This document shows positions 39,602-57,760 of a stretch of 64,000 bases of DNA, in pieces; positions within the stretch are counted from its first letter, which is position 1; every line of letters begins with the position of its first letter. The position numbers were made by a program, and so were the translations under genes. A model generated the notes under the pieces. The model was not told the DNA's origin. It was given only the letters and a program-made list of their open reading frames with translations, and did no database searches. This stretch comes from Bacteroidales bacterium. GTDB lineage: Bacteria; Bacteroidota; Bacteroidia; Bacteroidales; UBA1715. Where the stretch lies: NCBI GenBank assembly GCA_045599365.1, contig JAZRVS010000185.1, positions 43,919-107,918 of the forward strand, given 5' to 3'.

Positions 39602-39696
39602 CAAATAAAATTCATTATTTTGTTCTATGGTAGATAACCAAGAATGACAGTTAAGCATAATGGTCAACAAAAACGAAGGAATATTTATTATATACA

Positions 39697-39786: not shown

Positions 39787-39809
39787 AATTTATCAACCTA
39801 CATCGTGTT

Positions 39810-40025: not shown

Positions 40026-40039
40026 TACAAATATCAACA

Positions 40040-40752: not shown

Positions 40753-40777
40753 AGAATATAAATACACAAAAACATAT

Positions 40778-40924
40778 ATGAACACTTCATTTCAAGATCT
40801 AAAAATCGCAGTAGCTGGTACAGGCTATGTTGGTTTGTCTATAGCAACCTTGCTTGCACAACATCATATGGAGACCCGCAAAATGAACCTTGCTGAATTC
40901 TTGGAGAAGGAGATTGTGAAATAA
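40778..40924 (+). pseudogene. ugd: Fossil 5' fragment of UDP-glucose 6-dehydrogenase, copy 3 (48 codons)
   Basis: MNTSFQDLKIAVAGTGYVGLSIATLLAQHH followed by unrelated residues and a stop. A full-length Ugd would be roughly 400 aa or more. Confidence 0.7.
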
Positions 40925-43381: not shown

Positions 43382-43835
43382 CAAGAAATCTGCATTTCAA
43401 GAAGCAGTAGAAAACACACCTGAAGTGAAGGCTGGATATTGTAGCGGATTAAAGGCAGTAAAGGGTTCCGACCGTTCCAAGATTGTTTCTTCCAAAACCC
43501 TTCTTATTAACGGTAGTCTTGACATAGACTCGTGTGTAAAGGGAATCTATCCAAAGGAAAACAGATGGGATTATGCTATATCCTATAACGATGAAATCAC
43601 CTTTCTTGAGATTCACCCTGCATACGACAAGGAAATCGTGGTCCTGCAGAGAAAGTTGAGTTGGCTGAAGGCATGGCTAAAGTCAAAAGCTCCTCTCATC
43701 AATGCTCTTCCCATGTCTGATAAGCCCTTCTGTTGGGTACCTTCTGGCGAGAATGGATTTTTATCTACATCCGTTTCAAGAAAGAAGATAGCCTTGTTGG
43801 GAATATCCTACGAGAACCGACTGATATTAAGATAG
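43371..43835 (+). CDS. Hypothetical 154-aa protein, translationally coupled partner of the ATPase
   Basis: Its start overlaps the ATPase stop by 11 nt (aaatATGgcgaaTAA). I recognise no family. Possible nuclease-like D...D...ExH spacing (LDIDSC / RWDYAI / FLEIHPA). Confidence 0.55.
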   Translation: MANNKKSAFQEAVENTPEVKAGYCSGLKAVKGSDRSKIVSSKTLLINGSLDIDSCVKGIYPKENRWDYAISYNDEITFLEIHPAYDKEIVVLQRKLSWLKAWLKSKAPLINALPMSDKPFCWVPSGENGFLSTSVSRKKIALLGISYENRLILR

Positions 43836-43846
43836 TAAAAAATAAA

Positions 43847-44026
43847 ATGAATGTGCTCAATAACCCACTCACCTCAGAGTTCTCGACCTACAGAGGATTA
43901 GATTCAGCAAAACCTGAGAATCTCCCGAATGCTCACAAGATGGCGGATAGCGTTATCTGCTTGCCTATGCATCATGAGCTTTCACAGGAAGACATAGAGC
44001 GGATACTGAATTTGATACTTAAGTAA
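43847..44026 (+). pseudogene. Duplicated 3' end of a degT-type aminotransferase gene
   Basis: MNVLNNPLTSEFSTYRGLDSAKPENLPNAHKMADSVICLPMHHELSQEDIERILNLILK parallels the C-terminus of the intact gene (NVLGRRYFYPLISEFSTYRGLESANPANLPNARKMADSVICLPMHHELSDNDIERTLAFLKK, ~42014-42202). Confidence 0.8.
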
Positions 44027-44052: not shown

Positions 44053-44952
44053 ATGAACAAGAACATGCAAGAAACAAGAGATTTCCTCAAGAGCATTGGA
44101 ATGCCAGAAGGAGATCTTTATTCACTTCCTACTTCAGAGAAGCGTTTCCCTGATGGTGGTCAGTACCGCTTCGAGGTTCCTGGAATTCAGGGTCCTGGCC
44201 CTATGAAGGCACTCTTGGAACAACTTGATGAGTATGGCATCCAGATTCATCGCGTAACACAAACAAAGGGTATCATGTTCCTTACCGATGAAGAAATCAA
44301 GCAGATGGTGGCATTGGCAGAGAAGTATCACGTACAGTTGGTACTTGCTTGTGGCCCTCGTGCTACAACCGATACTTCTGCATCAGTAAAGACCGAAGAA
44401 GGCCAGCGTATGGGTTATCGTCTTCGTGGTCAGGAACAGATAGTTCGTGGATTTGAAGAAATCAGACGTGGAGCTCGCCTCGGTGTTCGTGGATTCCTTA
44501 TTTATGATGAGGGTTTGCTTTATGCTCTTAATGAAGCGCGCAAGTCCGGCTTCATACCGGCAGACTGCCACTTCAAGATTTCTGCTCATTCAGGTCACGG
44601 AAATCCGTGTTCCGCCCATGTGCTTGAGTCATTGGGTGCCAACAGCATCAACCCTATTCGCGACATCCAGATTCAGATGCTTGCCGCAATGCGTGCCGCT
44701 ATTGACGTGCCTATCGATCTGCATACCGAGAATCCTAAATCCAGTGGTGGTTTTATCCGTCACTACGAGGTTCCGGAGTTTGTACGTGTAGCTGCTCCTG
44801 TCTATCTGAAGACCGGTGGATCTGTTGCTGCTAATCACAGTTATGATACCACTGAGAAGGAGGCAAAGCAGAGGGCAAAGCAGATTCTGCTGGTAAAGAG
44901 AGTGCTGGACGAGTATTATCCTGATGCAGTTGTGTCTCCAAAATTAAAGTAA
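44053..44952 (+). CDS. Hypothetical enzyme-like protein (family not recognised; alternating pattern suggests a barrel-type fold)
   Basis: 299-aa ORF tightly packed with the downstream genes. No motif I can name. Confidence 0.5.
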   Translation: MNKNMQETRDFLKSIGMPEGDLYSLPTSEKRFPDGGQYRFEVPGIQGPGPMKALLEQLDEYGIQIHRVTQTKGIMFLTDEEIKQMVALAEKYHVQLVLACGPRATTDTSASVKTEEGQRMGYRLRGQEQIVRGFEEIRRGARLGVRGFLIYDEGLLYALNEARKSGFIPADCHFKISAHSGHGNPCSAHVLESLGANSINPIRDIQIQMLAAMRAAIDVPIDLHTENPKSSGGFIRHYEVPEFVRVAAPVYLKTGGSVAANHSYDTTEKEAKQRAKQILLVKRVLDEYYPDAVVSPKLK

Positions 44953-44953
44953 C

Positions 44954-46189
44954 ATGGAAAGCAAACCTGTTGCTGTCGTTCTTGGCGGAACAAGTCCACA
45001 TGTTATCCTTACTCAAAAACTAAAACAAAGAGGGTATTATGTGGTACTTGTAGATTACTTGGATAATCCCCCAGCCAAGAGGGTGGCAGATGAGCACATA
45101 CAGGCAAGTACTCTAGACCAAGAAAAAGTACTTGATATTGCTGGCCATAAGAATGCTTCTTTAGTAATCAGCACATGTATTGACCAGGCTAATAGCGTAT
45201 GTTGCTATGTTGCTGAGAAATTAGGCTTGCCACATCCGTATAGTTATAAAACATCATTAGATGTAACTGACAAGGGCTTGATGAAGAAGATAATGACTGA
45301 TAATGGTATTCCGACTTCTTCATACACATTGTCAGATTCCATTGATAATATTGATTGGAACAAGGTCTTATATCCTGCGGTTGTGAAGCCAGTTGATTGT
45401 AACAGTTCCAAGGGTGTTCGTAGGGTGGATTCTGAAGAAGAAACTAAACTCAGAGTTAAGGAGGCTCTTGAACTTAGCAGAACGCACATGGCGATTATCG
45501 AAGGATTCAACCAAGGCGAAGAGATTCAAGTTGATTGTGTCTCCACTAATGATGGCGTTAAAGTTGTCCTGACTAGACAGAAAAAGAAGATAAAAGGGAA
45601 GTGCAACCAGATGGTTCTTAATTCTACAGGCTCCATTCTCCCTGCTCCTCTCAATGAACAATTGAACAGGCAGGCGCAAGAGATTGCTGAAAAGATTGCA
45701 ACATCATTTGGACTGCACAATACTCCTTTCTTTTATCAGGCAATTGTTACAGACAAAGGGATTCAAGTCCTTGAGTTCGCACCTCGGATAGGAGGCGGAT
45801 TAAGTTACTATGTAATTAAGGAACTTGCTGGATTTGATGTCGTTGAAGCTGCTATTGACTCTTTTATGGGTAATGATATCGTTTTCAATGGAAAGTCTCT
45901 TGACAAGTGTTACTCGACGAATCTGCTATATATGCGTCCTGGGGTTTTTGACCACATAGAAGGACTTAATGAACTCAAAGAACTTGGCGTAGCGACAGAA
46001 GTCTTTGTTATGAAAAACAAAGGAACTGAAGTTGATGGTGATATGAGAAGTTCCAATAGAGTTGCAGCATTTGTGTTGTCTGCAAATAGTTATGATGAAT
46101 TAAAGACTAAGGAAAAGAAAGCAATTGAGAGTGTTGAAATTATAGACGAGGCAGGTGCTCCTCTCTTAAATCGTTCCATTTATGATTAA
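44954..46189 (+). CDS. ATP-grasp ligase (1 of 4)
   Basis: Pre-ATP-grasp Rossmann-like N-terminus (VAVVLGGTSPHVILTQKLKQRGYYVVLVD), then ...DKGLMKKIMTDNGIPT...YPAVVKPVDCNSSKGV.... Confidence 0.8.
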   Translation: MESKPVAVVLGGTSPHVILTQKLKQRGYYVVLVDYLDNPPAKRVADEHIQASTLDQEKVLDIAGHKNASLVISTCIDQANSVCCYVAEKLGLPHPYSYKTSLDVTDKGLMKKIMTDNGIPTSSYTLSDSIDNIDWNKVLYPAVVKPVDCNSSKGVRRVDSEEETKLRVKEALELSRTHMAIIEGFNQGEEIQVDCVSTNDGVKVVLTRQKKKIKGKCNQMVLNSTGSILPAPLNEQLNRQAQEIAEKIATSFGLHNTPFFYQAIVTDKGIQVLEFAPRIGGGLSYYVIKELAGFDVVEAAIDSFMGNDIVFNGKSLDKCYSTNLLYMRPGVFDHIEGLNELKELGVATEVFVMKNKGTEVDGDMRSSNRVAAFVLSANSYDELKTKEKKAIESVEIIDEAGAPLLNRSIYD

Positions 46190-46197
46190 CAATTAAT

Positions 46198-47337
46198 ATG
46201 ATACATCATCAATATAACCCCAGTTACAAGTTTGTTAAGGCACCAGTTGACTTTAACAAATACACAGATCGCGAATTGCTACAATATTGTCTTGGAGCAA
46301 CAATGTATATGCCTGGAACAAAAGATTTTGCACAGGCAGTAATTGACAGGAAGTATCCTGGACTGACCTCTATGGTTATGTGCTTTGAGGATGCTTGTAA
46401 GTTGGAAGACGTTCCTGCTGCCGAACTCAATAGTATCCATGTGCTCGACACCTTGGCTGATGCTGTAGATAACGGCACATTGAAGTATGAGGATATTCCT
46501 CTTATTTTTTTCCGTGTGCGTTCGGTTGAGCAATTCAAACACTTTGCGTCCATGCTCAAGCCTCGTCACATCAAGTTTCTGTGCGGTTTCAATTTTCCCA
46601 AGTTCAACAGCATCACGGCAGCTCCTTATATGGAGCACTTGGTTGAGTTGAATGCAAAGTTCGGTGAGATAATATATGGCATGCCAATCATCGAAGACTC
46701 TCGTGTTGCATACAAAGAGACGCGTCTGCTTGAACTTATGGCCATAAAGAATGTTTGTGACTGCCACAAGAAACTCATTCTAAATGTACGTGTCGGTGGA
46801 ACCGACTTCAGTAGCTGTTTTGGTGTCCGTAGAGGTATCAACTATACTATTTATGACATAATGACCGTAAGTAACTGCCTGATGGATATCCTCAATGTGT
46901 TCACCAGAAACAATGACTATACAGTCAGTGGGCCAGTATGGGAATATTTCAAGGCTAACAAGAGCATGAAGAATATGGAAGAACTGCCTAAGGTTGATCT
47001 TCAGCAAACCCTTCTGAAACGTAAAGCCGTAGTCAACGATGCTGTTGATGGACTGATGCGCGAACTTGTGCTTGATCAGGCAAATGGCTTCATGGGCAAG
47101 ACCTGCATCCATCCGACACACCTTAACTACATTAACGGAATGTTGGCTGTCACGAAAGATGAATACGATGACGCATATCAGATTATGCACACATCAGGTG
47201 GTGTGATAAAGGGCAGCAAGGGCATGAATGAAATTGGACCACACAAGAATTGGGCTCAGCGTATTTTGATGCGTGCCGAAGCTTATGGTGTCATTGAGAA
47301 CGATGCTAGTTATATTGATTTATTTGGAGTAAAATAA
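46198..47337 (+). CDS. HpcH/HpaI aldolase / citrate-lyase beta (CitE)-like family protein
   Basis: ...SMVMCFEDA... and ...GFMGKTCIHPTHL... resemble the CitE/HpcH acidic and IHP motifs. 379 aa with an N-terminal extension. Confidence 0.65.
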   Translation: MIHHQYNPSYKFVKAPVDFNKYTDRELLQYCLGATMYMPGTKDFAQAVIDRKYPGLTSMVMCFEDACKLEDVPAAELNSIHVLDTLADAVDNGTLKYEDIPLIFFRVRSVEQFKHFASMLKPRHIKFLCGFNFPKFNSITAAPYMEHLVELNAKFGEIIYGMPIIEDSRVAYKETRLLELMAIKNVCDCHKKLILNVRVGGTDFSSCFGVRRGINYTIYDIMTVSNCLMDILNVFTRNNDYTVSGPVWEYFKANKSMKNMEELPKVDLQQTLLKRKAVVNDAVDGLMRELVLDQANGFMGKTCIHPTHLNYINGMLAVTKDEYDDAYQIMHTSGGVIKGSKGMNEIGPHKNWAQRILMRAEAYGVIENDASYIDLFGVK

Positions 47338-47339
47338 AA

Positions 47340-48335
47340 ATGCCCAAAATACTTCATACATATCGTTATACAGGACGTCCTTGGGAAATACTGAAATCAG
47401 TAGTTCCCGAGGGCTATACTATCAAGACATTAGACGAACCTACACAAGAGCAACTTGTCAAAGAAGCGGCTGATGCTGATTATTTATTGGTGAGTGGCCG
47501 CCTGAAGATTAACAAAGAGGTGTTGGATAGTGCCAAGAACCTGAAGATGATTCAGCGCACCGGTGTAGGCACAGAGATGCTTGACAAGGAGGAAATCAAA
47601 TCTCGCAACATCCCAGTATATGTGAATGCTGGAGTCAATGCTAGAAGCGTGGCAGAACATACGCTCACGCTTATGCTTACATGCCTTAAGCGAATACCTG
47701 CTATTGACAAGCAGGTTCGTAATGGTGTATGGAAGAAACAGGAAACAGGTACTTCCTGTCACGAACTCTATGGTAAAACTGTTGCTCTTGTGGGTATGGG
47801 TGCTATAGGTCGCCAGGTCGCCAAATATCTTAATTGCTTTGGCGCAAGAGTTATTTATACTGACATCTTCCAGCAGCCTAAAGAAATAGAGGAAGAGTTG
47901 AGCCTCACATTCTACCCATTCCTTCAACAATCAACAATCAACAATCAACTCCTTGCGGAAGCCGACATTCTGTCTTTCCATTGTCCACTCACTGGGGATA
48001 ATGTTGAAATGCTGAATGCTTCAACCATTAGCAAAATGAAAGATGGTTCAATTGTTATAAATACCGCTCGTGGTAAACTCATCAATGAAGTAGCATTGCT
48101 CGAAGCTCTCAAATCTGGCAAACTTGCCTCAGCTGGTTTGGATGTGCATTATGAAGAACCAATGCTAAAGGATGATCCTCTTTACACGCTTGATAATGTT
48201 ATCCTCACTCCTCATATTGCTGGACTCTCTTTTGAGACCTTCCATTCGATGATGAAGGGTGCTGTGGATAACATAGTGGCTTACGAAAATAATCAGTTAG
48301 AAGAAATAAGTAATAAATTAATAAAACTACCATGA
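47340..48335 (+). CDS. D-isomer-specific 2-hydroxyacid dehydrogenase
   Basis: NAD motif VALVGMGAIGRQVA, NTARGKLINEVALLEALKSGKLASAGLDV, catalytic LTPHIAG. Confidence 0.85.
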   Translation: MPKILHTYRYTGRPWEILKSVVPEGYTIKTLDEPTQEQLVKEAADADYLLVSGRLKINKEVLDSAKNLKMIQRTGVGTEMLDKEEIKSRNIPVYVNAGVNARSVAEHTLTLMLTCLKRIPAIDKQVRNGVWKKQETGTSCHELYGKTVALVGMGAIGRQVAKYLNCFGARVIYTDIFQQPKEIEEELSLTFYPFLQQSTINNQLLAEADILSFHCPLTGDNVEMLNASTISKMKDGSIVINTARGKLINEVALLEALKSGKLASAGLDVHYEEPMLKDDPLYTLDNVILTPHIAGLSFETFHSMMKGAVDNIVAYENNQLEEISNKLIKLP

Positions 48336-49459
48336 TTAAGAAACTCTTGATTAGGATAATGGGGTGGAAAAGATCCATGACAAATTATTGGGTCAGTAAT
48401 CACTTGGATTCCTATTGCTCTTTTTTGATAAGAACCAATAGGTATAAGAAGATCAACTGCTGGGGGGGGGAAAACTTTGTGGAGATGTTCAATGAATCAA
48501 GCAGAGATTTTCTTGAGAAAGGTGATTTGCAAAATGAATCATTAATGAGTGAATTACTTTTGGATACCCTAAAATGTAACTTCAAGTATGGTGTGAACCC
48601 AGAGGAGTATTTCATACACGATTTCCGTCACAAGGATTCCAAGATACGCGAAACATACCTCCCCAAATCACTAAAAGATCAGTTGGTTATAAAGCAACTT
48701 GGTGATAAGATGAAAATAGCATTTGTGGAACTGAAAGATAAATATAAGTTTTATCAAATTGCTGGAAAGTATTTTAAGAGGGAGGCATATTCTATAACAA
48801 AAGATTCAGACATAAAGGACTTTGAAATCTTTGTAAGCAAACATCCACGTTTTATCGCAAAACCCATTCAAGGACGTTATGGCAAGAATACCGCTATCTA
48901 TAATATTGATGATTATGATGGTAATGTAGCCCGATTGTTTGGAGTATTACTTTCAATAACAAGCGAATGGATAGTAGAAGAACTCATTACTCAAGATTCC
49001 CGTATGGAAGAATGGAATCCAACATCAGTAAATACAATCAGAATACCTTCGTTCAGAACAAGAGATGGTATTCAAATACTATATCCTTTCTTTAGAATGG
49101 GACGAAAAGGCAGTGTTGTAGATAATGCAGGCAGTGGTGGTATAGCGGTTTCTGTCGATGCGAAAATCGGTGTTTTTACAACTGATGGTATGGACGAGGC
49201 TGGAAATGTCTTTGTTAAGAATCCGGATAATGGTAAAATCATAAAAGGATGGCAAGTCCCGAAGTGGAGCGAACTCCTTGCATTTGCAAAAGAGGTACAC
49301 GAATCACTCCCTATTTATCACAAGTATGTAGGTTTTGATTTTGCACTCACACCTAGTGGTTGGGTTCTTGTAGAGGGCAACTGGGGTGATTTTATCTGTC
49401 AACAGTCAACGCTTCATCGTGGGTTGCGTAAGGAGTTTGAGTCCATGATAAATGATTGA
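48332..49459 (+). CDS. Sugar-transfer-associated ATP-grasp (ATPgrasp_ST-like) protein (2 of 4)
   Basis: ...FIAKPIQGRYGKNTAIY..., ...NAGSGGIAVSVD..., ...VGFDFALTPSGWVLVEGN fit this family. ATGA overlap with the upstream gene. Contains a G9 tract at 48462-48470. Confidence 0.65.
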   Translation: MIKKLLIRIMGWKRSMTNYWVSNHLDSYCSFLIRTNRYKKINCWGGENFVEMFNESSRDFLEKGDLQNESLMSELLLDTLKCNFKYGVNPEEYFIHDFRHKDSKIRETYLPKSLKDQLVIKQLGDKMKIAFVELKDKYKFYQIAGKYFKREAYSITKDSDIKDFEIFVSKHPRFIAKPIQGRYGKNTAIYNIDDYDGNVARLFGVLLSITSEWIVEELITQDSRMEEWNPTSVNTIRIPSFRTRDGIQILYPFFRMGRKGSVVDNAGSGGIAVSVDAKIGVFTTDGMDEAGNVFVKNPDNGKIIKGWQVPKWSELLAFAKEVHESLPIYHKYVGFDFALTPSGWVLVEGNWGDFICQQSTLHRGLRKEFESMIND

Positions 49460-49530
49460 TAGGGTACTATTATTCACAGCTATTGAGTTTTGCCACAAAG
49501 AGTAGCTTCACTACTATTATATTTTATATT

Positions 49531-50883
49531 ATGACAGTCAATTTTTTAAGCAGTATCCACTCTATCCGTAAGGAAGACATCCCCCTAGAAGTATGGCATC
49601 AAGCTCGCAGAGCATTGATTGACTACCTGAGTGTGACTCTTTCTGGAGCAAAAGCATTCTGTGAGAAGGAAACTGCCTATGTGGATGCATTGGGGGAGAT
49701 TGGTGACGCAACAGTCTTTGGTCTTAGTCGCAAATGCTCTATGCAGACAGCGGCTCTCATGAATGGTATGAGCGCTCATGTGATAGAATTGGATGATGGT
49801 CATAGAAGAGGTGCACTCCATGTTGGTGCAACCGTTTTCTCGGCACTACTCCCTGTGGCAGAGCATGAACATCTTTCTTCTGAAGATTTGCTCTATGGTG
49901 CTATCATCGGTTATGAAGCCACTATACGACTTGCTTGTGCTGTGCAACCTGGAAATAAACTTCGTGGCTATCATGCTACAGGCACATGCGGCACGGTAGG
50001 TGCAGCTATGGGAATTGCGGCTGCTCTTGGTCTCGACTTTAACCAGATGAAATCAACACTTTCAGCTGCAGTGACAAGTGCAGCTGGAGTGTTGGAGATG
50101 CAGGAAGACAATGCAGACTTGAAACCACTAAATGTGGGGCGTGCAGCTATGGATGCAGTAGCTGCTGCTTATCTTGGTAAAGCTCGATTTAAGGCTCCAA
50201 TAGATGCTATTGGTGGAAAGAGAGGTTTCCTGAAGGTGATGACGGATGATCCACATACGGAATTCATAACGGATTTTGAAAAGGATGCACCTTTGGCAAT
50301 CACACAAATCTATATGAAAACCTATGCCGCATGTCGTCATACCCATCCTGCCATTGAAGCCGCCCTTACTCTTCGACCTCAACTTATTGACTCGTTGACA
50401 TGTGGACTCGTTGACTCCATCACAGTCGAAACCTATAAACTTGCTGTAGTGGGTCACGACCATACTGACATTCTTGGCATTAGTTCAGCCAAAATGAGTA
50501 TGCCATTTGTTGTTGCTCTCGCTTTAGTAAAGGGCTCTGCTGGTATGGAAGACTTTAATGAAGCAAACGTAGCAGATGAGGAGATACTATCACTTACAAG
50601 GAAGGTTAATGTAGTAGAGAACGAAGAACTTTCGGCATTAGTACCTGTGAAACGTGCTTCTATCCTTAATATAAAGATGAAGGACGGCATGACTCTTTCT
50701 CATCGTGTGGATTATCCTAAGGGCGAGCCCGAGAATCCTTTGTCAGATGAAGAACTTATCCAGAAGTTTAACACTCTCGCCATGGATAGTGGCCTCACAG
50801 CAGAGAATTGCAACAAAGCAATAGAATTAATAAATCAACCAACATTCAACGTCAATACACTCATTGACTTGTTGGCATTATAA
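49531..50883 (+). CDS. MmgE/PrpD-family protein (2-methylcitrate dehydratase / cis-aconitate decarboxylase superfamily)
   Basis: ...ARRALIDYLSVTLSGA..., ...MNGMSAHVIELDDGHRRGALHVGATV... ATG at 49531 is preferred over the ORF-track start at 49456. Confidence 0.85.
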   Translation: MTVNFLSSIHSIRKEDIPLEVWHQARRALIDYLSVTLSGAKAFCEKETAYVDALGEIGDATVFGLSRKCSMQTAALMNGMSAHVIELDDGHRRGALHVGATVFSALLPVAEHEHLSSEDLLYGAIIGYEATIRLACAVQPGNKLRGYHATGTCGTVGAAMGIAAALGLDFNQMKSTLSAAVTSAAGVLEMQEDNADLKPLNVGRAAMDAVAAAYLGKARFKAPIDAIGGKRGFLKVMTDDPHTEFITDFEKDAPLAITQIYMKTYAACRHTHPAIEAALTLRPQLIDSLTCGLVDSITVETYKLAVVGHDHTDILGISSAKMSMPFVVALALVKGSAGMEDFNEANVADEEILSLTRKVNVVENEELSALVPVKRASILNIKMKDGMTLSHRVDYPKGEPENPLSDEELIQKFNTLAMDSGLTAENCNKAIELINQPTFNVNTLIDLLAL

Positions 50884-50888
50884 GGGAA

Positions 50889-51893
50889 ATGATGTCAAAA
50901 CAATACAATTATTGCTTGGACTTTGTCAAGGGTATTGCCTGTATATTTGTAGTGCTAATGCATTGTGAGTTTCCGGGTCTGTTAGGAACTGCAGTACAAG
51001 CTATCAGTAGGTTTTGTGTCCCTCTGTTTTTCATGGTTTCTGGCTATTTCTGCTTCAAACCTGAAGTTACCCTAAATGGGGGGGGTAATTTATTGAAAAT
51101 CAATAAGAAAGTAAAACACATAACAAAAATAACAATCAATGCTTGTATATTCTATACGGTATTTACAATTTTGCTATGCTTACTTGGGAAAGATATCGAC
51201 TGGTCAATTTCAAAAATGGGAATCTTTTCGTGGTTAGTCTTCAATGCCCCTGCTTGGGCTGGAGTTGCAGGTCAATATTGGTTCCTTTTTGCATTACTCT
51301 ATACTTACATATTCTATGGCGTATTGATACGTTTGGGGTGGCTTAAGCAAGCCTATTGGTTGGCAGGTGCTATGTTCATTGTATATATTGTGATGGCGCA
51401 AGGAATGCACCTTGCAGGAATGGGTGTTCCGAATATGATCTACCGTAACTGGCTTGTGGAAGGATTTGCATACTTCATGTTAGGTCATTGGATTCATCAT
51501 CATCAAGACAACCTCAGGTTTGATAATAGGATTCTGCTAATAATAGTTTTGGTGAGTACTATGCTATGTTGGGTTGAACGTTTCCTTATGGGGCGTGATT
51601 TCGGCGTGAATATTGTTACAATACCACAAGTATTCTGTTTGTTCCTTTATGCTGTCAATAATCCTACTTTGCATAAGGGTGCGATTCAAGAAATTGGAAA
51701 ACGTTATTCAATGTTCGTTTACATTATTCATCCTGCCGTATGGCATGGGTTGGAATTCGTATATGCAAAAGTCGGCTTGTCTGAGAATATGCCAGCTCTA
51801 TATCTTATGCCAATATTTGTGGTGTTCATGACATTATTTGTATCTCATTTAGTATATACGCTTAATAATAGGACAAAACTTTCAACAATATGA
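50889..51893 (+). CDS. Membrane acyltransferase family 3 (O-acyl/acetyltransferase)
   Basis: ...LDFVKGIACIFVVLMHCEF... and about 10 TM segments. Contains a G8 tract at 51078-51085. Confidence 0.8.
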   Translation: MMSKQYNYCLDFVKGIACIFVVLMHCEFPGLLGTAVQAISRFCVPLFFMVSGYFCFKPEVTLNGGGNLLKINKKVKHITKITINACIFYTVFTILLCLLGKDIDWSISKMGIFSWLVFNAPAWAGVAGQYWFLFALLYTYIFYGVLIRLGWLKQAYWLAGAMFIVYIVMAQGMHLAGMGVPNMIYRNWLVEGFAYFMLGHWIHHHQDNLRFDNRILLIIVLVSTMLCWVERFLMGRDFGVNIVTIPQVFCLFLYAVNNPTLHKGAIQEIGKRYSMFVYIIHPAVWHGLEFVYAKVGLSENMPALYLMPIFVVFMTLFVSHLVYTLNNRTKLSTI

Positions 51894-52399
51894 TAGAATT
51901 AACAACCCCATTCCGGGAGGAAGACATTGCCAAACTGAAAGTTGGTGACGTGGTCTCCATATCTGGCTATATCTATACCGGTCGTGATGCTGTCCTCCCC
52001 AAGATTGTGAAGCATGCCGAGGATGGCACGTTGGCTGACATCAATGTGGATCTGCAAGGTCAGGTCATCTTCCATACTGCTGTGAGTCCTGCCGGTGTGG
52101 GACCTACGTCAAGCAATAAGCTGGAGATTGAATCCAGCTTTGAACCGCTTTCACTCCATGGCATCAAGATGCACCTTGGCAAAGGTGCCATCAAGCCGGA
52201 GACTGTGAAGGCATTGGCAGAGAACAATGCAGTCTTTGCAATCATCCCTCCCGTAACGGCTCTTTTAGGTAGTCAGACTTCTGACATCAAAGTGGTATGC
52301 TATCCAGAACTGGGTATGGAGGCACTTCATTCAATCAAGGTAGAGAACTATCAAGCCATCATAGCAGCTGCTCAGGGTAAGAGCATCTATGACCGCTAG
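51890..52399 (+). CDS. Fe-S type hydro-lyase beta subunit (class I fumarase C-terminal domain / TtdB-like)
   Basis: ...GDVVSISGYIYTGRDAVLPKI..., ...AGVGPTSSNKLE..., ...HLGKGAI fit the family. 169 aa. Confidence 0.8.
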   Translation: MIELTTPFREEDIAKLKVGDVVSISGYIYTGRDAVLPKIVKHAEDGTLADINVDLQGQVIFHTAVSPAGVGPTSSNKLEIESSFEPLSLHGIKMHLGKGAIKPETVKALAENNAVFAIIPPVTALLGSQTSDIKVVCYPELGMEALHSIKVENYQAIIAAAQGKSIYDR

Positions 52400-52432
52400 T
52401 TGAATGTTGAATGATTATAGTTGAATGAAATT

Positions 52433-52822
52433 ATGGATGATAAATCAAACATATTTGCGTATCGTAAGTTGAATGTTTACCACAAGGCAAAGGAATGGAT
52501 TAAGGATGTTTATTCCTTGATTGAGAAATTTCCTCCTGTTGAGAGGTATGCATTGGCTGATCAAGTAAGACGTGCTTCATTTTCTGTAACATCAAATATT
52601 GCAGAAGGTTCTTCAAGAAGTTCCAGAAAAGAAGAGGCACATTTCATAGAAATGTCATTCGGCTCTCTAATGGAAGTGCAATCTCAACTTGAGATAGCTC
52701 AAACTCTTGGTTATCTCTCACAATCCGACATAGATCTGATTGATGAAAAGACAGTGGTAATTGCAAAGATGTTATCTGGTTTAAAATCTCCTTTATTAAA
52801 AGAAAATCAAAATGGAAAATAA
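52433..52822 (+). CDS. Four-helix-bundle protein (23S rRNA intervening-sequence protein family)
   Basis: ...YRKLNVYHKAKEWIKDVYSLIEKFPPVERYALADQVRRASFSVTSNIAEGSSRSS..EAHFIEMSFGSLMEVQSQLEIA is a family hallmark. ATG at 52433 is preferred over the TTG at 52421. Confidence 0.8.
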   Translation: MDDKSNIFAYRKLNVYHKAKEWIKDVYSLIEKFPPVERYALADQVRRASFSVTSNIAEGSSRSSRKEEAHFIEMSFGSLMEVQSQLEIAQTLGYLSQSDIDLIDEKTVVIAKMLSGLKSPLLKENQNGK

Positions 52823-53687
52823 TAATATCAACAATCAACAATCATCTATCATCAATAAGGTCGCAGACTGTCTCGTAAGAGCAGGCTCGACCTTCCGTGA
52901 GGATCAGAAAGAGGCATATCGTAGAGCTATTTCAAGTGAGAGTAACGAAGCTTCCTGCTGGGTGATGAAGCAGGTTCTGGATAATGCCCTTGTTGCAGAA
53001 AAGAACTGTGGTCCTCTTTGCGATGATACAGGAATACCTCACGTGTTCATTGAGGTGGGGAAGAATCGTACAATCACCGGTCAGATGATGGCAGATATCA
53101 AAGAGGGCATCCGTCAAGGATTGCGTATGCTCCCTGGTCGTCCAATGGCCATCAAGGGAAATGACTATGAACGCATTGACCAGAGTGGAGGACTGAACGA
53201 AGATAGTGGCGCTTTGCTTCCTTCACCTTTCCTGATTAAGGAAGTGGATGAGGAGGACACCCTTCGTTTGACCGTACTGATGCTTGGGGGCGGTCCAGCT
53301 ATCCGTGGCATAACCCAACGCGTATTCCATAAGCATAGCGTACATGTAGTCATAGATGAGATTGTCAATCGTGCTACACCAGCTGTAAGCCAGTTGGGAT
53401 GCTCACCTTGCACATTGGCAATTGGCATTGGTCGTTCACAGTTCGAAGCCACCAGCCTCATGATGGAAGCCATGGCAAAAGGTGATTTTGGTGTTCAGAG
53501 TGACTTTGAGAAGACTATCACCGATAGAGTAAACGAATCAAATACTGGGGCTTTAGGTCTTGGCGGAAAGACTTCCGTCCTTGCCACTTTTGCCAAGGTT
53601 GGCCCTCAGCGTGCAAGCGGAGTCCGCATTGTTGCCTTACGTCCTTGCTGCTGCTTTGAACCGAGAAGAGCAACGATAGAATTGTAG
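52812..53687 (+). CDS. Fe-S type hydro-lyase alpha subunit (class I fumarase N-terminal domain / TtdA-like)
   Basis: ...PLCDDTGIPHVFIEVG... (family QDTG-type motif), ...GGGPAIRG..., and C-terminal Cys residues. 291 aa. Confidence 0.8.
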   Translation: MENNNINNQQSSIINKVADCLVRAGSTFREDQKEAYRRAISSESNEASCWVMKQVLDNALVAEKNCGPLCDDTGIPHVFIEVGKNRTITGQMMADIKEGIRQGLRMLPGRPMAIKGNDYERIDQSGGLNEDSGALLPSPFLIKEVDEEDTLRLTVLMLGGGPAIRGITQRVFHKHSVHVVIDEIVNRATPAVSQLGCSPCTLAIGIGRSQFEATSLMMEAMAKGDFGVQSDFEKTITDRVNESNTGALGLGGKTSVLATFAKVGPQRASGVRIVALRPCCCFEPRRATIEL

Positions 53688-53775
53688 TGTATTGCCCCCA
53701 CGAAACCCCAAAAATAAAACCGCAAAAGCCATAGGCCAGTCGGCGGTGGATAAGAAGTAAACAATGCATTAGAGA

Positions 53776-55041
53776 ATGAAGAAAGATTTTTCAGGGAAGA
53801 AGCTGTTGGTTTTGGCAGGGGCTGACGTACATAGAAAGTTAGTCAGTGCGGCAAAGGGAATGGGCGTATATGTGATTGTTACGGACAATCTTGACCCCTC
53901 GGTGTCCCCAGCCAAAAAGATAGCAGATGAGTATTGGAATATAGACATAACCGATGTCGATTCCATTGTGAAGAAATGTATGGAAGCGCACGTGGATGGT
54001 GTCCTTACATATTCGATAGATCCTGCACAACTGCCGTATTGCAAGATATGCAGCAGACTCAATCTTCCGTGCTACGGAACCTTGGAGCAATTTGAAATAA
54101 TGACAAACAAGCGACTATTCAAGGATTTTTGCATAAAGAATGGAGTGGAGGTTGTTCCTGAATATACGATGGAGGATGTCAATAATGATAGAGTGGAATA
54201 TCCCGTCTTGGTGAAACCATTGGAGAGCAGAGGCTCTCGTGGTCAGTCAGTCTGCAATATCAGGGATGAGGTGCGTACTGCTGTCGATATTGCAAGGAGA
54301 GAGTGCAGCAGAAATGGATATATTATAGAAAGGTATCTCGGGGATGAATATCAGGATATGGCTCTGGCATACGTTGTGGTTGACTGCATCCCATATCTCG
54401 TAAAGTGTGGAGACAGGAATTTGGGAAGGAAAGAGGATAATCTTGACAGACAACAGATGGTGGCGGTACTGCCATCGAGGTATGCCAGTGAATATGTAGA
54501 GAAATGCAGCCCCCTTGTTGAGGCGATGATATCTAACTTGGGCATAAAGTTCGGCGCCGTTTTCCTTCAGGGATTTTATAAGGGAGGGCATATCTACATG
54601 TATGATCCGGGATTGCGTTTGCCGGGAAGTGATTTTGATCTGGTCCTGCGTAAAAGCACGGGTCTTGATTTGCCCTCGACTTTTGTCCATTATGCCTTGA
54701 CTGGCGATACGAAATATGCATTCGGCCCCTTGAAGAACGCATATCAAATGGGTGGGGCAATTTGTTTGATTTTTGCAGTGGCGGTTCGTCCAGGGGTTGT
54801 TAGTGAAGTTTTGGGAATAGAAGCATTTTCGAAAGACGAACGGATTCTATCGATTGATCAAAGGATATATCCAGAAGATACTATTCCAAGCACTGGAGAT
54901 ATCAGGCAACGGGCAATCGAATTGATAGTGTACCTGCCAGACAGAGAATCCATCCCTGAATTTGCGAAGTATGTATATGATACGTATCACGTGATTGATA
55001 TAGAAGGAAAAGATATGATTTGTTCACGAGTTGATTTTTGA
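53776..55041 (+). CDS. ATP-grasp ligase (3 of 4)
   Basis: KKLLVLAGADVHRKLVSAAKGMGVYVIVTD..., ...NKRLFKDFCIKNGVEVVPE..., YPVLVKPLESRGSRGQSV. Confidence 0.8.
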   Translation: MKKDFSGKKLLVLAGADVHRKLVSAAKGMGVYVIVTDNLDPSVSPAKKIADEYWNIDITDVDSIVKKCMEAHVDGVLTYSIDPAQLPYCKICSRLNLPCYGTLEQFEIMTNKRLFKDFCIKNGVEVVPEYTMEDVNNDRVEYPVLVKPLESRGSRGQSVCNIRDEVRTAVDIARRECSRNGYIIERYLGDEYQDMALAYVVVDCIPYLVKCGDRNLGRKEDNLDRQQMVAVLPSRYASEYVEKCSPLVEAMISNLGIKFGAVFLQGFYKGGHIYMYDPGLRLPGSDFDLVLRKSTGLDLPSTFVHYALTGDTKYAFGPLKNAYQMGGAICLIFAVAVRPGVVSEVLGIEAFSKDERILSIDQRIYPEDTIPSTGDIRQRAIELIVYLPDRESIPEFAKYVYDTYHVIDIEGKDMICSRVDF

Positions 55042-55051
55042 TTATTCCAAG

Positions 55052-56263
55052 ATGAAGCATAATACAACAATAATGTTCGTTGAGGCATCAAATGATATGC
55101 TTCCTTGGTTTAAACGTGCTCGGGAGTTCGGATACCGCTGTGTAGTATGCGGTACAGATAAATCAAAGGAGATGGCTCGTGATGCTGACGCATATTATGA
55201 TATGCCATATTCTGATAGGAATGGGTGTATTGCTATCGCAGAAAGAGAGAAGGTTGACGGTGTGATAGGTGGAGGTGACCAGTCTGCTCTAACAGCAGCC
55301 TATGTAGCGAAAGCTTTGTTACTGCCCGGTAACGATCCAAAGGGAATGGAACGTATGATGAATAAACAGGAATTCCGGGAACTGCAAAAGGAACTGGGTC
55401 TTGCCCATCCTGAATTTGTATATGCTTCTGAGTTGAATTCGTTTATTGAGAAGGTTCGGGGAATGACGTTTCCAATAATTGTCAAACCAGGGCAAATGTC
55501 ATCGAGCAGAGGAGTGAAAGTTTTCAATTCTTTTGACCATAATAGTTTGGCGGAACATTTTATATATTGCCGAGGTCTTTCCTACAACGATGTGGTTTGC
55601 GCAGAGCAATACTTCGAGATTCTGGAAAGAGTAGTATATGAGTTCAATCCTTTTATTAATGGAGACAAAATGATCTGGTCTGGGAATATGATTGATATTC
55701 ATTCCAGATATTGCCCTGAAGTCCCATCCGGAGGTTCTTGGCCAATGCCAATTCTTCCCCAAATGCGACAGAAGGCAGAAAATGATATTCTTAAAGTATT
55801 GCTTGCAACAAATTTCAAGTTCGGTGAGGTCAATGTAGAATCTTTTTTCACTTCCGAAGGCGATTTTGTTATTCTCGAGGTTAATCCTAGGCGTTGTGGG
55901 GGAGGTGTGCAAAAATATATTCAATATTCATCTGGTAAGGATTATATCGGTATGCTTGTATCACTTGCTGTAGGGGATAGCTCTTTTTTTGATGAACAGT
56001 TCAAGAAGACGATTTGCCAAGTAAACCCCATTAGCGCATTCGCGGTTTATTCGAACTCTGCGCGTGTTTTTAATGATATTGAGGTGGATGAAGAATTGAA
56101 ACCGTATTTGTATGAGACCTATTTATGTGTGGATAAAGGGAGTACTACTCGTGCTTGCCAGAATTATCATGATAAAATTGGTACAATGGTTTTCCATTTC
56201 CCTTCCACAGATATTCAAAAACAGTACATTTATCGGATGGAAGATTTTGTTCAGGTAATTTGA
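55052..56263 (+). CDS. ATP-grasp ligase (4 of 4)
   Basis: ...NKQEFRELQKELGLAHPEF..., FPIIVKPGQMSSSRGVKV, ...VILEVNPRRCGGG. ATG at 55052 is preferred over the TTG at 55031. Confidence 0.7.
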   Translation: MKHNTTIMFVEASNDMLPWFKRAREFGYRCVVCGTDKSKEMARDADAYYDMPYSDRNGCIAIAEREKVDGVIGGGDQSALTAAYVAKALLLPGNDPKGMERMMNKQEFRELQKELGLAHPEFVYASELNSFIEKVRGMTFPIIVKPGQMSSSRGVKVFNSFDHNSLAEHFIYCRGLSYNDVVCAEQYFEILERVVYEFNPFINGDKMIWSGNMIDIHSRYCPEVPSGGSWPMPILPQMRQKAENDILKVLLATNFKFGEVNVESFFTSEGDFVILEVNPRRCGGGVQKYIQYSSGKDYIGMLVSLAVGDSSFFDEQFKKTICQVNPISAFAVYSNSARVFNDIEVDEELKPYLYETYLCVDKGSTTRACQNYHDKIGTMVFHFPSTDIQKQYIYRMEDFVQVI

Positions 56264-56305: not shown

Positions 56306-57760
56306 ATGTCCCAAGAATCTCTAAAAAATAAAACAGTAAAAGGTGTAGGTTGGTCAGCGGTGGATAATGTCGCCCAGTATGCGGTGTCGTTTGTGGTCGG
56401 CATTGTGCTGGCTCGACTGCTGAGTCCGGACGATTACGGGCTGATAGGTATCATCGCTATCTTTACGGCAGTCTGTACAGCCATCATCAATGGTGGTTTC
56501 AGTACGGCTCTTATCCGCAAGAACGACTGCACGGACGATGACTACAATACCGCTTTCATCGTCAACCTCGGTCTCAGTCTTGTGCTATATGCCGTCATCT
56601 TCCTCTGTTCTCCGCTCATCGCCAATTTCTTCGGCAAGCAGGAACTAGTGGCGTTGACAAGGGTGTCGTCCATCACGATGATAATAGGAGCCCTTGCCAT
56701 AGTGCAACAGACACGTCTAACAAAGAGAATAGATTTCAAGACACAGACCAAAATCTCGCTCATCTCGGCAATCTCTAGTGGCGTGATAGGTATTGGGATG
56801 GCGTTGGTAGGATGTGGTGTATGGTCGTTGGTGTGCCAGGGTATAGCATCGCAATTGTTGAAGACAATCCTGCTGTGGTTCTACAACAAGTGGGTGCCAA
56901 GGTTACGGTTCTGCAAAGAATCTTTTAATGAACTATTCGGCTTTGGCTGGAAGATGATGGTGTCGGGAATTCTGGACAGCACTTGGCAGCAATTGTATCA
57001 AGTAGTTGTAGGTAAGTTTTATAGTCCCGCAACTTTAGGACAATATACAAGGGCAAAGCAGTTCTCGCAACTTTTCTCTTCGAACTTGACAAGTGTTATC
57101 CAGCGAGTGACATATCCGGTATTGAGCACTATTCAGGACGAAAAAGAGCGTATGATTGAGGCATATAGGAGAATCATCAAACTTACAATGTTCATCACAT
57201 TTACTTGTATGTTCGCTTTGGGTGCAGTTTCTGAACCATTATTATATTGCCTGATTGGAGAAAAATGGCATGAGGCGGCAACATATTTGCCGTTGATTTG
57301 CTTTGTCGGATCGTTATATCCTCTTCATGCCATCAACTTGAATATGTTGCAGGTGCAGGGAAGGAGCGATCTGTTCTTGTTCCTTGAAATTGTCAAGAAA
57401 ATTGTCGGGCTTGCCCCATTGTTGGTTGGCGCATTTGTGGGAATATTTCCAATGTTATATATTTCAATTGTTACGAGTTTCATTAATTATTTGCTCAATT
57501 CATATTTCCCAGGTAAATTGTTGGGCTATACTTCTTGGAAACAACTGAAAGATATTGCACCTTCATTTTTTATTGCTTTGACGATGGCATTGATTGTATG
57601 GTTGTTGAAGTATCTTCCATTGTCGAATTGGGCGATACTGCCGATACAGATTGTGGTAGGTGTAGTAACCTTTTTCGTATTGTGCAAGGTGACGAAGAAC
57701 AAGGAATATGAAGAGGTAAAAAAGATAGTTATGCCGTTGTTTTTGAAATTTAAAAAGTGA
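56306..57760 (+). CDS. wzx: Polysaccharide flippase (MOP/Wzx family)
   Basis: 484 aa and about 12-14 TM segments. N-terminus ...KTVKGVGWSAVDNVAQYAVSFVVGIVLARLLSPDDYGLIG is typical of Wzx. Confidence 0.85.
   Translation: MSQESLKNKTVKGVGWSAVDNVAQYAVSFVVGIVLARLLSPDDYGLIGIIAIFTAVCTAIINGGFSTALIRKNDCTDDDYNTAFIVNLGLSLVLYAVIFLCSPLIANFFGKQELVALTRVSSITMIIGALAIVQQTRLTKRIDFKTQTKISLISAISSGVIGIGMALVGCGVWSLVCQGIASQLLKTILLWFYNKWVPRLRFCKESFNELFGFGWKMMVSGILDSTWQQLYQVVVGKFYSPATLGQYTRAKQFSQLFSSNLTSVIQRVTYPVLSTIQDEKERMIEAYRRIIKLTMFITFTCMFALGAVSEPLLYCLIGEKWHEAATYLPLICFVGSLYPLHAINLNMLQVQGRSDLFLFLEIVKKIVGLAPLLVGAFVGIFPMLYISIVTSFINYLLNSYFPGKLLGYTSWKQLKDIAPSFFIALTMALIVWLLKYLPLSNWAILPIQIVVGVVTFFVLCKVTKNKEYEEVKKIVMPLFLKFKK

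Follow-up and report, generated by a model that had tools for sequence, protein, structure and literature searches.

An organic-acid and ATP-grasp gene cassette in a Bacteroidales capsule locus, predicted to supply a glycan substituent

Gene content of the block

We describe here a block of twelve genes (g1 to g12) at positions 44053-56263 of a 64,000-nucleotide stretch of contig JAZRVS010000185.1 from a Bacteroidales bacterium, the whole of which we refer to as the window. The block joins enzymes of organic-acid metabolism to ATP-grasp ligases, and with a confidence near the midpoint of the scale we regard it as one instance of a widespread, horizontally mobile biosynthetic cassette in surface-polysaccharide loci. 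An earlier note on this DNA had placed twelve co-directional and tightly packed genes here, and all of them are present: the twelve open reading frames (ORFs) lie on the + strand with intergenic gaps of -11 to +88 nt, and five of the junctions overlap. The block starts 26 nt after the relic of a DegT-type gene and ends 42 nt before the gene for a Wzx-type flippase (56306-57760, +; PF13440, E = 5e-94) that closes it. No terminator-like hairpin was found in any gap of the block, in a scan whose counts were not above those in shuffled sequence; the counts of the accompanying sigma-70 promoter scan also equalled those in shuffled sequence, the promoter consensus used not being a Bacteroidetes one. 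Judged by its sequence, the block looks like one transcription unit inside a Bacteroidales capsule locus, and the arrangement is far beyond chance because the same gene set recurs in dozens of genomes.

The first gene, g1 (44053-44952, +), encodes a 299-residue TIM-barrel enzyme that is distantly U32-like and is the most conserved member of the cassette. Alone it matches nothing in Pfam or NCBIfam, and sequence and profile searches against the PDB give marginal matches only, but PF01136 (Peptidase_U32) is weakly matched by 24 of 32 diverse g1 relatives (the best at 2.3e-6; the window g1 itself is unmatched), and distant relatives carry the NCBI name 'U32 family peptidase'. The AlphaFold2 model is an (alpha/beta)8 barrel with a pLDDT of 92.9 and a pTM of 0.91 when a diverse alignment is used, as against a pLDDT of 60 on a shallow one. 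The best Foldseek matches to this model have TM-scores of about 0.5, with the U32 protein Mk0906 first (TM 0.42-0.50); class II aldolases, the pyruvate carboxylase carboxyltransferase domain and members of the ICL/PEPM family make up the rest. Nine polar residues are conserved (E41, R146, D152, K175, S177, R214, D222, R236 and K253) and stand at or after the C-terminal ends of the strands, a placement that, in the model, would be expected of a metal- and carboxylate-binding active site.

Two assignments of g1 can be set aside. The UbiU/UbiV-type U32 proteins, which are O2-independent hydroxylases, bind a 4Fe-4S cluster through conserved cysteines; no cysteine is invariant or nearly so in the 32-sequence g1 alignment, which rules out a U32-type Fe-S hydroxylase. 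A canonical phosphoenolpyruvate (PEP) mutase is ruled out as well, g1 having neither the EDKxxxxxNS motif nor specific similarity to ICL/PEPM proteins in sequence or fold. Relatives of g1 are numerous, with 958 cluster representatives at 50% identity in a whole-library search, and 6034 homologues at E <= 1e-3, the best 120 of which are at least 78% identical. A distant one (34% identity) is encoded in an apparent small-molecule cluster on an Enterobacter chuandaensis plasmid (NZ_CP097174.1, 79936-90004; L090, such numbers denoting related loci in other genomes), where it is surrounded by genes for a phosphotransferase, an NAD(P) oxidoreductase, a class I/II aminotransferase, two 'iron-containing redox enzyme family' proteins, an M14 peptidase, an MFS transporter and a nucleotidyltransferase; others are found in unannotated GC-rich records of Streptomyces and Nonomuraea.

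Profile annotation bears out nearly all of the family labels that the earlier note had attached to the block, with refinements for g3, which falls in PF15617 and not in citE proper, for g6, which lies nearer to IRG1 than to PrpD, for the hydro-lyase (g8 and g10) and for the marginal ligases g11 and g12. The product of g3 (46198-47337, +) is a CitE-like TIM-barrel C-C lyase or synthase that matches PF15617 (C-C_Bond_Lyase; E = 2.7e-111), a family presumably defined from a module linked to the Ter system, and that scores 23.2 bits against the citrate lyase beta model citE (cut-off 443.4) and 22.4 against RipC (cut-off 375). A single-sequence search of the PDB gives marginal matches only, and a profile built from 21 homologues has weak matches to malyl-CoA lyase 5ugr, CLYBL 5vxc and CitE 3qll. 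Both CitE motifs, 'cfEDA' and 'GFvGKtiIHPsH', are kept and align to 5ugr and 5vxc, and E64, D65, G297, G300, H305 and P306 are invariant in the 21 homologues. There are 3903 homologues of g3 at E <= 1e-10, with the best 120 at least 78% identical.

The next gene, g4 (47340-48335, +), encodes a D-isomer-specific 2-hydroxyacid dehydrogenase (2-HADH; PF02826, 1.6e-57; PF00389, 5.5e-23) that stands closest, among solved structures, to short phosphoglycerate dehydrogenases, to glyoxylate reductases and to McyI. It is under every equivalog cut-off (for example 207.6 of 455 bits for glyoxylate reductase and 207.7 of 454 for phosphoglycerate dehydrogenase), and is predicted to reduce the 2-oxo acid of the pathway. 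The g6 product (49456-50883, +) belongs to the IRG1/IDS-epimerase branch of the MmgE/PrpD family (PF03972, 2e-51; PF19305, 4.5e-40), and its PDB matches are to B. subtilis IRG1 (7.5e-32), IDS epimerase (2e-28), cis-aconitate decarboxylase (CAD, 1e-19) and PrpD 1szq (3e-4), with the best PrpD model at 49.5 bits against a cut-off of 950. It is ruled out as a true PrpD, being far nearer to IRG1, CAD and IDS epimerase, and would dehydrate, isomerise or decarboxylate a di- or tricarboxylate.

The last of the organic-acid enzymes is a two-subunit class-I-type Fe-S hydro-lyase, with the beta subunit encoded by g8 (51890-52399, +; PF05683, Fumerase_C, E = 1.1e-21) and the alpha subunit by g10 (52812-53687, +; PF05681, Fumerase, E = 4.5e-47). 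The alpha subunit aligns to M. jannaschii fumarate hydratase alpha 7xky (2.7e-22), scores 107.2 bits against TIGR00722 (cut-off 100.65), and keeps all three Fe-S cysteines, in PLCDDTG, GCSPCTLAIGIG and RPCCCF, across homologues. The beta subunit is below its cut-offs (82.7 of 145.15 bits for TIGR00723 and 74.3 of 264 for TtdB). In fumarases and tartrate dehydratases the canonical beta motif is GPTTSxRM; g8 has GPTSSNK instead, within a motif GVGPTSSNKLE that is conserved in 50 of 70 homologues. The scores below cut-off and the altered beta motif rule out a plain fumarase or tartrate dehydratase.

Among the four ligases, g2 (44954-46189, +) is the conserved ligase of the cassette. It is an ATP-grasp of the L-amino-acid-ligase (LAL) type (Pfam GARS_A, ATP-grasp_4 and LAL_C2) that passes several ATP-grasp models at 37-50 bits, weakly matches ATPgrasp_Ter too, and is nearest among solved structures to the L-amino-acid ligase BL00235 (3vot, E = 1.4e-18). 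The 'sugar-transfer associated' ATPgrasp_ST ligase g5 (48332-49459, +; PF14397, E = 3.3e-40, 138.5 bits) is a variable accessory, present in a minority of related loci and in two copies in some. Two divergent accessories, g11 (53776-55041, +) and g12 (55031-56263, +), are marginally recognised, g11 as ATP-grasp-like by CPSase_L_D2 (22.1 bits against 19.8) and g12 by Dala_Dala_lig_C (25.7 bits against 24), with all NCBIfam ATP-grasp matches of g12 under cut-off; the identity between the two proteins is 27% over 126 residues. Over its full length g11 is 27% identical to a second recurring ATP-grasp type (L021:6579-7871; tblastn E = 1.5e-35), and none of 46 related loci has a homologue of g12 at 30% identity or above. 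The number of ligases per related locus ranges from 0 to 4, and the g2 type, found at 30% identity or more in 18 of the 46, is the only widely conserved one. The proposal in the earlier note that four ligases build an oligomer, and hence a heavily acid-decorated capsule, is thus unsupported, the complement of ligases being specific to this locus.

The top NCBIfam match of g2 is the ATP-grasp half of the ATP-grasp-lyase fusion PRK02186, and an adenylosuccinate/argininosuccinate-lyase-type gene follows the cassette in Vreelandella (L063:13097-16924), Balneola, Taibaiella and one Bacteroidales metagenome-assembled genome (L023, L060, L084); taken together, these are a hint of an amination step by aspartate addition and fumarate elimination. 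The Vreelandella locus also has WbqC-like, hexapeptide transferase and cyclase genes.

The relation of the block to a sugar aminotransferase is less direct than the earlier note had it. The flippase does stand immediately downstream, but the intact DegT/DnrJ/EryC1 aminotransferase (41006-42202, +; PF01041, E = 1.5e-93) is not adjacent to g1, being separated from it by a two-gene insertion (42221-43835), with a relic remaining at the old junction (43865-44026, +), immediately before g1, where the final 53 codons of a DegT gene survive. The relic shares 77% identity with the C-terminal end of the intact DegT and 65% with that of the DegT that abuts g1 in locus L001, and it marks the trace of an ancestral DegT-g1 junction. 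DegT homologues that adjoin g1 in related Bacteroidales loci are 66-74% identical to the intact DegT, for which the top NCBIfam model is DesI (279 bits, under its cut-off of 650), and whose product, the acceptor, is probably a 4-amino-4,6-dideoxyhexose.

Recurrence and variation of the cassette

A query built from a closer set of 12 g1 sequences was searched against contigs from one genome per species, and g1 relatives are encoded at at least 583 places in these species-representative genomes. The best 80 of the matches are 67-89% identical and come from the Bacteroidota, Bacillota, Actinomycetota, Kiritimatiellota, Spirochaetota, Desulfobacterota and Gammaproteobacteria; among them are Bacteroidales, Prevotella, Alistipes, Lachnospiraceae, Ruminococcus, Oscillospiraceae, Erysipelotrichaceae, Eggerthellaceae, Kiritimatiellae, Spirochaetales, Desulfobacter, Desulfatiglandales, Balneola, Taibaiella and Vreelandella. 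The gene set for which the earlier note proposed a search of other genomes is conserved in its core, which comprises g1, the PF15617 lyase, the MmgE/PrpD protein of IRG1-like type and both subunits of the Fe-S hydro-lyase and recurs in at least 583 species genomes. In a tblastn presence matrix of the 46 loci in which g1 is flanked by 7 kb or more on either side, a condensing or lyase enzyme is found in all 46 (g3 in 42, CitE in three and an HMGL-like protein in one), hydro-lyase subunits in 39, a PrpD-like protein in 37, some ATP-grasp in 31 and a glycan-locus marker in at least 34. The cassette is common, with thousands of metagenomic homologues in addition to the species genomes, and it has been exchanged between phyla at unusually high identity.

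The gene order of the window is shared by Paludibacteraceae and other Bacteroidales, in which DegT, g1, a ligase, g3, 2-HADH and ATPgrasp_ST are followed by variable genes, Wzx, PrpD, FumB and FumA. In many genomes the acid enzymes and ATP-grasp ligases are found together with aminotransferases of the DegT type, flippases, polymerases and initiating transferases; g1 directly adjoins DegT in many loci, and in several the dTDP-sugar genes RmlA/RmlB, or a WecE equivalog, lie alongside the cassette. Full-text searches with Pfam names and several combinations of enzyme names found no literature on this gene set, in agreement with the impression of the earlier note that the combination had not been described in a capsular polysaccharide (CPS) locus. 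The cassette is apparently undescribed, and the kind of system that it appears to represent is a dedicated substituent pathway inside a glycan locus.

Variation among the loci bears on the chemistry. In place of g3 an HMGL-like protein is present in two loci, and such non-orthologous replacement, by this protein or by CitDEF, points to acetyl-CoA/2-oxo-acid Claisen chemistry. The finishing enzymes vary too. Firmicutes, Desulfobacterota, a spirochaete and some Bacteroidales lack the 2-HADH and have an aldo-keto reductase (AKR) and a thiamine pyrophosphate (TPP)-dependent decarboxylase beside g1, as in the order Wzx, ligase, PrpD, AKR, decarboxylase, g1, g3, FumB, FumA. Twenty-one of the 46 loci have a reductase only (2-HADH or Ldh_2), 19 have only a decarboxylase resembling phosphonopyruvate decarboxylase (Ppd), one has both and five have neither, an exclusion with a Fisher p of 1.8e-7. 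The AKR accompanies the decarboxylase in 20 or 21 loci, and the Ldh_2-family reductase, which matches sulfolactate dehydrogenase best (309 bits, under the cut-off of 500), is found in eight. The simplest reading is that reductase and decarboxylase are alternative consumers of one 2-oxo acid, which the core would then probably deliver; by the same reading, the reductase would yield a 2-hydroxy acid, and the decarboxylase with the AKR an alcohol one carbon shorter.

Proposed pathway and competing explanations

The most likely function of the cassette is to make an unusual hydroxy-carboxylic acid and to link it to a sugar of the cell surface. The model that we favour, and in which we place as much trust as reserve, runs through condensation, isomerisation, 2-oxo-acid finishing and ATP-grasp coupling to an amino sugar. 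It starts from what is observed in gene content, gene order, conservation, intact motifs, non-orthologous replacements and the exclusion between finishing enzymes, and from these we infer every substrate, the order of the steps and the acceptor. The CitE-like g3 would join an acyl-CoA or enolate to a 2-oxo acid in a Claisen-type reaction, and g6 and g8 with g10 would, in an optional step, dehydrate and rehydrate or isomerise the resulting hydroxy di- or tricarboxylate. A pyruvate-like moiety would then be the target of g1, by C-C cleavage or formation or by decarboxylation, and the product of these steps would be a 2-oxo acid that still bears an anionic group. This acid would be reduced by g4 to a D-2-hydroxy acid here, and elsewhere would be reduced by the Ldh_2 reductase or converted by the Ppd-like TPP decarboxylase and the AKR to the alcohol. 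Activation of a carboxylate by g2 as an acyl phosphate would lead to an amide, for which the likeliest partner is the 4-amino group of the DegT product, a 4-amino-4,6-dideoxyhexose. At the window locus only, g5, g11 and g12 would add further units. Finally, g7 would O-acylate the glycan, and Wzx would flip the finished repeat unit. Amide-linked 2-hydroxyglutarate on a 4-amino sugar and malyl amides are known (PMC3210612) and offer a precedent for a hydroxy-acid substituent, and Cj1438C, an ATP-grasp of Campylobacter jejuni, forms amides in the capsule (PMC11800379). An amino sugar as acceptor is further supported by the frequent contact of DegT with g1, to which the DegT relic of the window still testifies, and by RmlA/RmlB or WecE near the cassette in several loci.

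Several points weigh against this model. Ligases of the LAL type usually join amino acids rather than coupling hydroxy acids to sugars. The structural matches of the g1 model are generic for TIM barrels, and the reaction is not readable from the predicted fold; moreover, none of the proteins of the block reaches an equivalog cut-off, so that the substrates are not readable from annotation. RmlA/RmlB and an initiating transferase are not encoded in the window, and the amino-sugar acceptor is therefore a matter of inference. That an unusual acid is ligated to the DegT amino sugar, as the earlier note proposed, thus holds in that the acid enzymes travel with ATP-grasps, DegT and flippases, and is weaker as to the acceptor. 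Four loci have DegT, g1, ligase, g3 and 2-HADH only, without PrpD or hydro-lyase, which makes dehydration and rehydration optional and the order of steps uncertain. Some Firmicutes loci have a DctM-like permease and a LysR regulator and no ATP-grasp.

Lastly, seven Clostridia loci (for example L080:3164-15658; also L081, L083, L085, L086 and L088) have a CitDEF operon without a ligase. The gene order of this variant is CitD, CitE, CitF, g1, FumB, FumA, a GldA-like Fe-dependent alcohol dehydrogenase, PrpD, a GlcD-like FAD oxidase, the beta and alpha subunits of an electron transfer flavoprotein and a second Fe-dependent alcohol dehydrogenase, with an AraC regulator transcribed divergently; its CitF is above the equivalog cut-off, and its CitE is below (307 bits against 443). 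The variant looks like an undescribed anaerobic organic-acid catabolic pathway that would use the same core, and its existence means that the core chemistry is not exclusive to capsules. In the core, a cleavage or condensation of the citrate-lyase type would be coupled to the steps of g1, the hydro-lyase and PrpD, and this chemistry could serve catabolism.

The ligases bring in a different product, in that the cassette could make a non-proteinogenic amino acid from which the ATP-grasps build a short peptide side chain on a glycan or uronic acid, an explanation that we consider unlikely. The route would proceed from the condensing enzyme through the isomerase to the 2-HADH acting in the oxidative direction and then to transamination, and it resembles the proposed beta-methylaspartate route of microcystin biosynthesis, which uses McyI. 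Consistent with it, g2 is nearest to an L-amino-acid ligase and has LAL_C2, McyI counts among the solved structures nearest to g4 (E = 6e-40), ATPgrasp_ST is similar to RimK-type glutamate ligases, a PGA_cap (CapA-like) gene lies within the cassette in several loci, and argininosuccinate/adenylosuccinate-type lyases stand alongside the ligase in four. However, the exclusion between dehydrogenase and decarboxylase fits two consumers of one 2-oxo acid and not a producer and a consumer, the block encodes no racemase or other amino-acid enzyme, and the sole aminotransferase is of the DegT type, the known substrates of which are keto sugars.

The decarboxylases raise the question of a cryptic phosphonate or sulfonate pathway, in which g1 would be a non-homologous analogue of PEP mutase or of phosphosulfolactate synthase that makes a 3-substituted pyruvate, and the product would decorate the glycan; we think this very improbable. 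The pull step would be provided by enzyme types familiar from phosphonate biosynthesis, namely by a decarboxylase and reductase, by a 2-hydroxyacid dehydrogenase, or by an acetyl-CoA-condensing enzyme followed by aconitase-like isomerisation. In favour of such a pathway, the decarboxylases beside g1 score 385 and 442 bits, above the 312.5-bit cut-off of the NCBIfam phosphonopyruvate decarboxylase equivalog, and database names agree. Decarboxylases at equivalog score are present in about 20 of the 46 related loci, although not in the window, and their closest relatives (53-60% identity) again lie inside the same cassette, beside Wzy, Wzx, GT2 and an initiating transferase. The enzymes seen beside g1 in various genomes, namely the Ppd-like decarboxylase, the 2-Hacid_dh and Ldh_2 reductases, an HMGL-like protein, an aldehyde reductase, a PF14907 nucleotidyltransferase and, in the Enterobacter plasmid cluster, a class I/II aminotransferase, match the list of phosphonopyruvate branch-point enzymes (PMC8942020).

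No PEP mutase motif (EDKxxxxxNS) occurs in any of the six frames of the window and the 88 related loci, save two chance matches in short ORFs, an absence that would suit a substitute for that enzyme, with the reservation that a canonical PEP mutase could sit elsewhere in the carrier genomes, outside the scanned loci. Ppd-like genes occur without PEP mutase within 9-10 kb (L021:8793-10001, L036:8765-9895, L093:9001-10131 and L094:9001-10131), and no PEP_mutase Pfam match is listed for L093 or L094; either they are systematically misannotated or there is a further source of substrate. Against the phosphonate pathway, g1 has no specific ICL/PEPM similarity in sequence or fold and no EDKxxxxxNS, g3 accompanies the reductase or decarboxylase rather than substituting for it, and the equivalog model may also catch decarboxylases of other 3-substituted pyruvates. 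To our knowledge no phosphonate has been reported from organisms without pepM, which also counts against it. That g1 founds a new family which, with no canonical PEP mutase involved, makes phosphonopyruvate or an analogue of it with a sulfo group or another heteroatom is a long shot; were it so, hundreds of gut, rumen and marine bacteria would put phosphonate-like groups on their glycans, invisible to pepM-based surveys, and Clostridia would run the same g1 family in reverse for catabolism.

The core could instead be a catabolic or salvage pathway for organic acids, placed in the capsule locus by hitch-hiking in a mosaic, insertion-rich region and without a role in the capsule. The CitDEF-g1 operons with an AraC regulator in seven Clostridia loci, the DctM and LysR neighbours in other loci, and the mosaic character of the window locus (the DegT-g1 insertion, the insertion of a 23S-rRNA-IVP-type gene, an insertion sequence (IS) element and raised G+C) are all consistent with it. 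We find it hard to credit, since at least 34 of the 46 loci have glycan genes and 31 have ATP-grasps interleaved with the core, since overlaps couple the core to the ligases and Wzx both in the window and in other phyla, and since capsule-type loci use the PF15617 lyase without CitD or CitF, which fits a distinct, biosynthetic version. The earlier note had allowed that the set might match a known non-capsular pathway; a non-capsular setting does exist in the CitDEF variant, but no known pathway was recognised in it, and the capsule loci differ in their lyase and ligases.

It is equally doubtful that the ATP-grasps activate a sugar carboxylate, that of a uronic acid in the repeat unit, and join it to a nucleophile supplied by the cassette, for, although Cj1438C amidates the C6 carboxylate of glucuronate in this way in a capsule (PMC11800379) and UDP-glucose dehydrogenase genes occur in several related loci and as a relic in the window (40628-40924), the predicted hydroxy acid or alcohol offers no amine and an ester would be needed, most related loci have no uronic-acid genes, and Cj1438C is TupA-like, of a subfamily other than that of g2.

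For the hydroxy-acid substituent that we favour, the identity of the product would define a new glycan building block and give functions to PF15617 and the g1 family, and it would settle whether 'phosphonopyruvate decarboxylase' genes without PEP mutase reflect misannotation or a hidden pathway. The cassette combines one enzyme family without assignment with familiar organic-acid enzymes recruited to new substrates. In gut and rumen Bacteroidales and Firmicutes the capsule influences how susceptible the cells are to phage, how the immune system recognises them and how they colonise, and the non-sugar substituents of these capsules are almost unknown.

Related systems and neighbouring genes

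The enzyme logic of the cassette is common to the methylcitrate cycle and to 2-oxo-acid elongation (PrpC-PrpD-Acn-PrpB; LeuA-LeuCD-LeuB; citramalate to 3-methylmalate to McyI), in which a Claisen condensation and a dehydration/rehydration are followed by a TIM-barrel lyase or a dehydrogenase to give a 2-oxo acid. The likeness extends to the PrpD-family protein, to the HMGL-like (LeuA/HCS-type) protein that stands in for g3 in two loci, and to McyI as a near relative of g4. The cassette differs in having PF15617 for citrate synthase or LeuA, a class-I-fumarase-type Fe-S enzyme for the aconitase type, an IRG1-like protein for a true PrpD and a U32-like barrel for PrpB, in having no enzyme of IPMDH/IDH type, and in its setting within a glycan locus with ATP-grasp ligases. 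The early steps of phosphonate and phosphonoglycan synthesis (Ppm with Ppd, VlpB, FrbC/RhiG or PalB; PMC8942020) use the same alternative pull enzymes as are found around g1, and the ATP-grasp ligases and PF14907 nucleotidyltransferase around g1 also have counterparts in those systems (PMC8942020); in contrast, PEP mutase was not found in the window or the 88 loci, and g1 is outside the ICL/PEPM family.

Capsule-locus ATP-grasps are represented by Cj1438C and by PF14397, the predicted 'sugar-transfer associated ATP-grasp' family of which g5 is a member. Cj1438C is TupA-like and joins a small amine to a uronic acid with no acid pathway beside it (PMC11800379), whereas the conserved ligase of the cassette is of LAL type and is coupled to an acid pathway of five to seven genes. 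The Ter-linked module of Anantharaman et al. 2012, as summarised in PMC11994780, contains a phosphoribosyltransferase (PRTase), a HAD protein, an ATP-grasp and a TIM-barrel C-C lyase, and in that summary resembles the cassette in pairing an HpcH/CitE-like TIM-barrel lyase with an ATP-grasp amide synthetase. The cassette differs from the module so summarised in having no PRTase, HAD or TerD/TerC, and the predicted Ter product is a nucleoside-like metabolite and not a glycan substituent.

The predicted class of product, a hydroxy acid in amide linkage to a 3- or 4-amino sugar and with its hydroxyl sometimes glycosylated, is shared with polysaccharides reviewed in PMC3210612. These include amide-linked 2-hydroxyglutarate in Tenacibaculum/Flexibacter maritimum and malate amides in Flavobacterium psychrophilum, Pseudoalteromonas rubra, Vibrio vulnificus and Shewanella algae (PMC3210612), whose acids are central metabolites or one step away and need no such pathway. 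A paper on the O-antigen genes of T. maritimum (PMC9796276) names none of the enzyme families of the cassette, and work on eukaryotic ATP-grasp enzymes likewise offers no parallel.

Two genes of the block stand outside the acid pathway and its ligases. The membrane acyltransferase-3 g7 (50889-51893, +; PF01757, Acyl_transf_3, E = 4.4e-30) is an accessory with a counterpart in 4 of the 46 related loci, and probably O-acylates the glycan. The four-helix bundle of 23S-rRNA-IVP type encoded by g9 (52421-52822, +; PF05635, E = 1.5e-32) sits between the hydro-lyase beta and alpha genes, overlapping the start of the latter by 11 nt, and is missing at that position in all related loci, where the two genes abut. 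Both g9 and the 299-residue g1 product had been counted as members of the block, and the two part company: g9 is a passenger outside the pathway, and g1, not peripheral at all, is its most conserved gene. The g9 product is also weakly bAvd/DGR-Avd-like. A different ORF, of 275 residues, lies at the beta/alpha junction in L007 and L008, and this junction seems to attract insertions.

The capsule locus starts with a gene for a UpxY-like (NusG-family) antiterminator (34860-35663, +), which scores 90.4 bits against the NCBIfam model antiterm_UpxY (curated cut-off 100). Beyond Wzx lie an IS element, glycosyltransferases (60007-60771 and 61993-63042), a Wzy-like gene (a weak Wzy_C match at 60812-61978) and a hexapeptide acyltransferase; Wzx, the Wzy-type polymerase and the glycosyltransferases are all on one strand, as in a Bacteroidales-type CPS locus. 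The G+C content is 0.39-0.45 over 40-58 kb, from DegT to Wzx, as against 0.31-0.35 just downstream, in the glycosyltransferase and Wzy genes, and 0.34-0.40 upstream, which hints at a separate acquisition of the cassette within a locus of mosaic origin.

The insertion between DegT and g1 (42221-43835) consists of an AAA_15/AAA_21 ATPase gene and an overlapping gene for a 154-residue protein without a family match, and the ATPase is weakly similar to the anti-phage ATPases MADS3, PtuA and the retron Eco8 effector. The IS3-type transposase ORF right after Wzx (57854-58732) carries HTH_Tnp_1 and rve in a single frame of 292 residues. The roughly 5 kb that separate the UpxY-like gene from DegT (35922-40924) hold genes on the same strand that have no relation to glycans, namely PRiA4_ORF3, a SocA/Panacea-like fragment, a RhuM fragment, a Schlafen-AlbA_2/HATPase_c_4 protein and DUF3990; the UDP-glucose dehydrogenase relic in 40628-40924 amounts to 23 codons of the N-terminus, at about 40799-40867.

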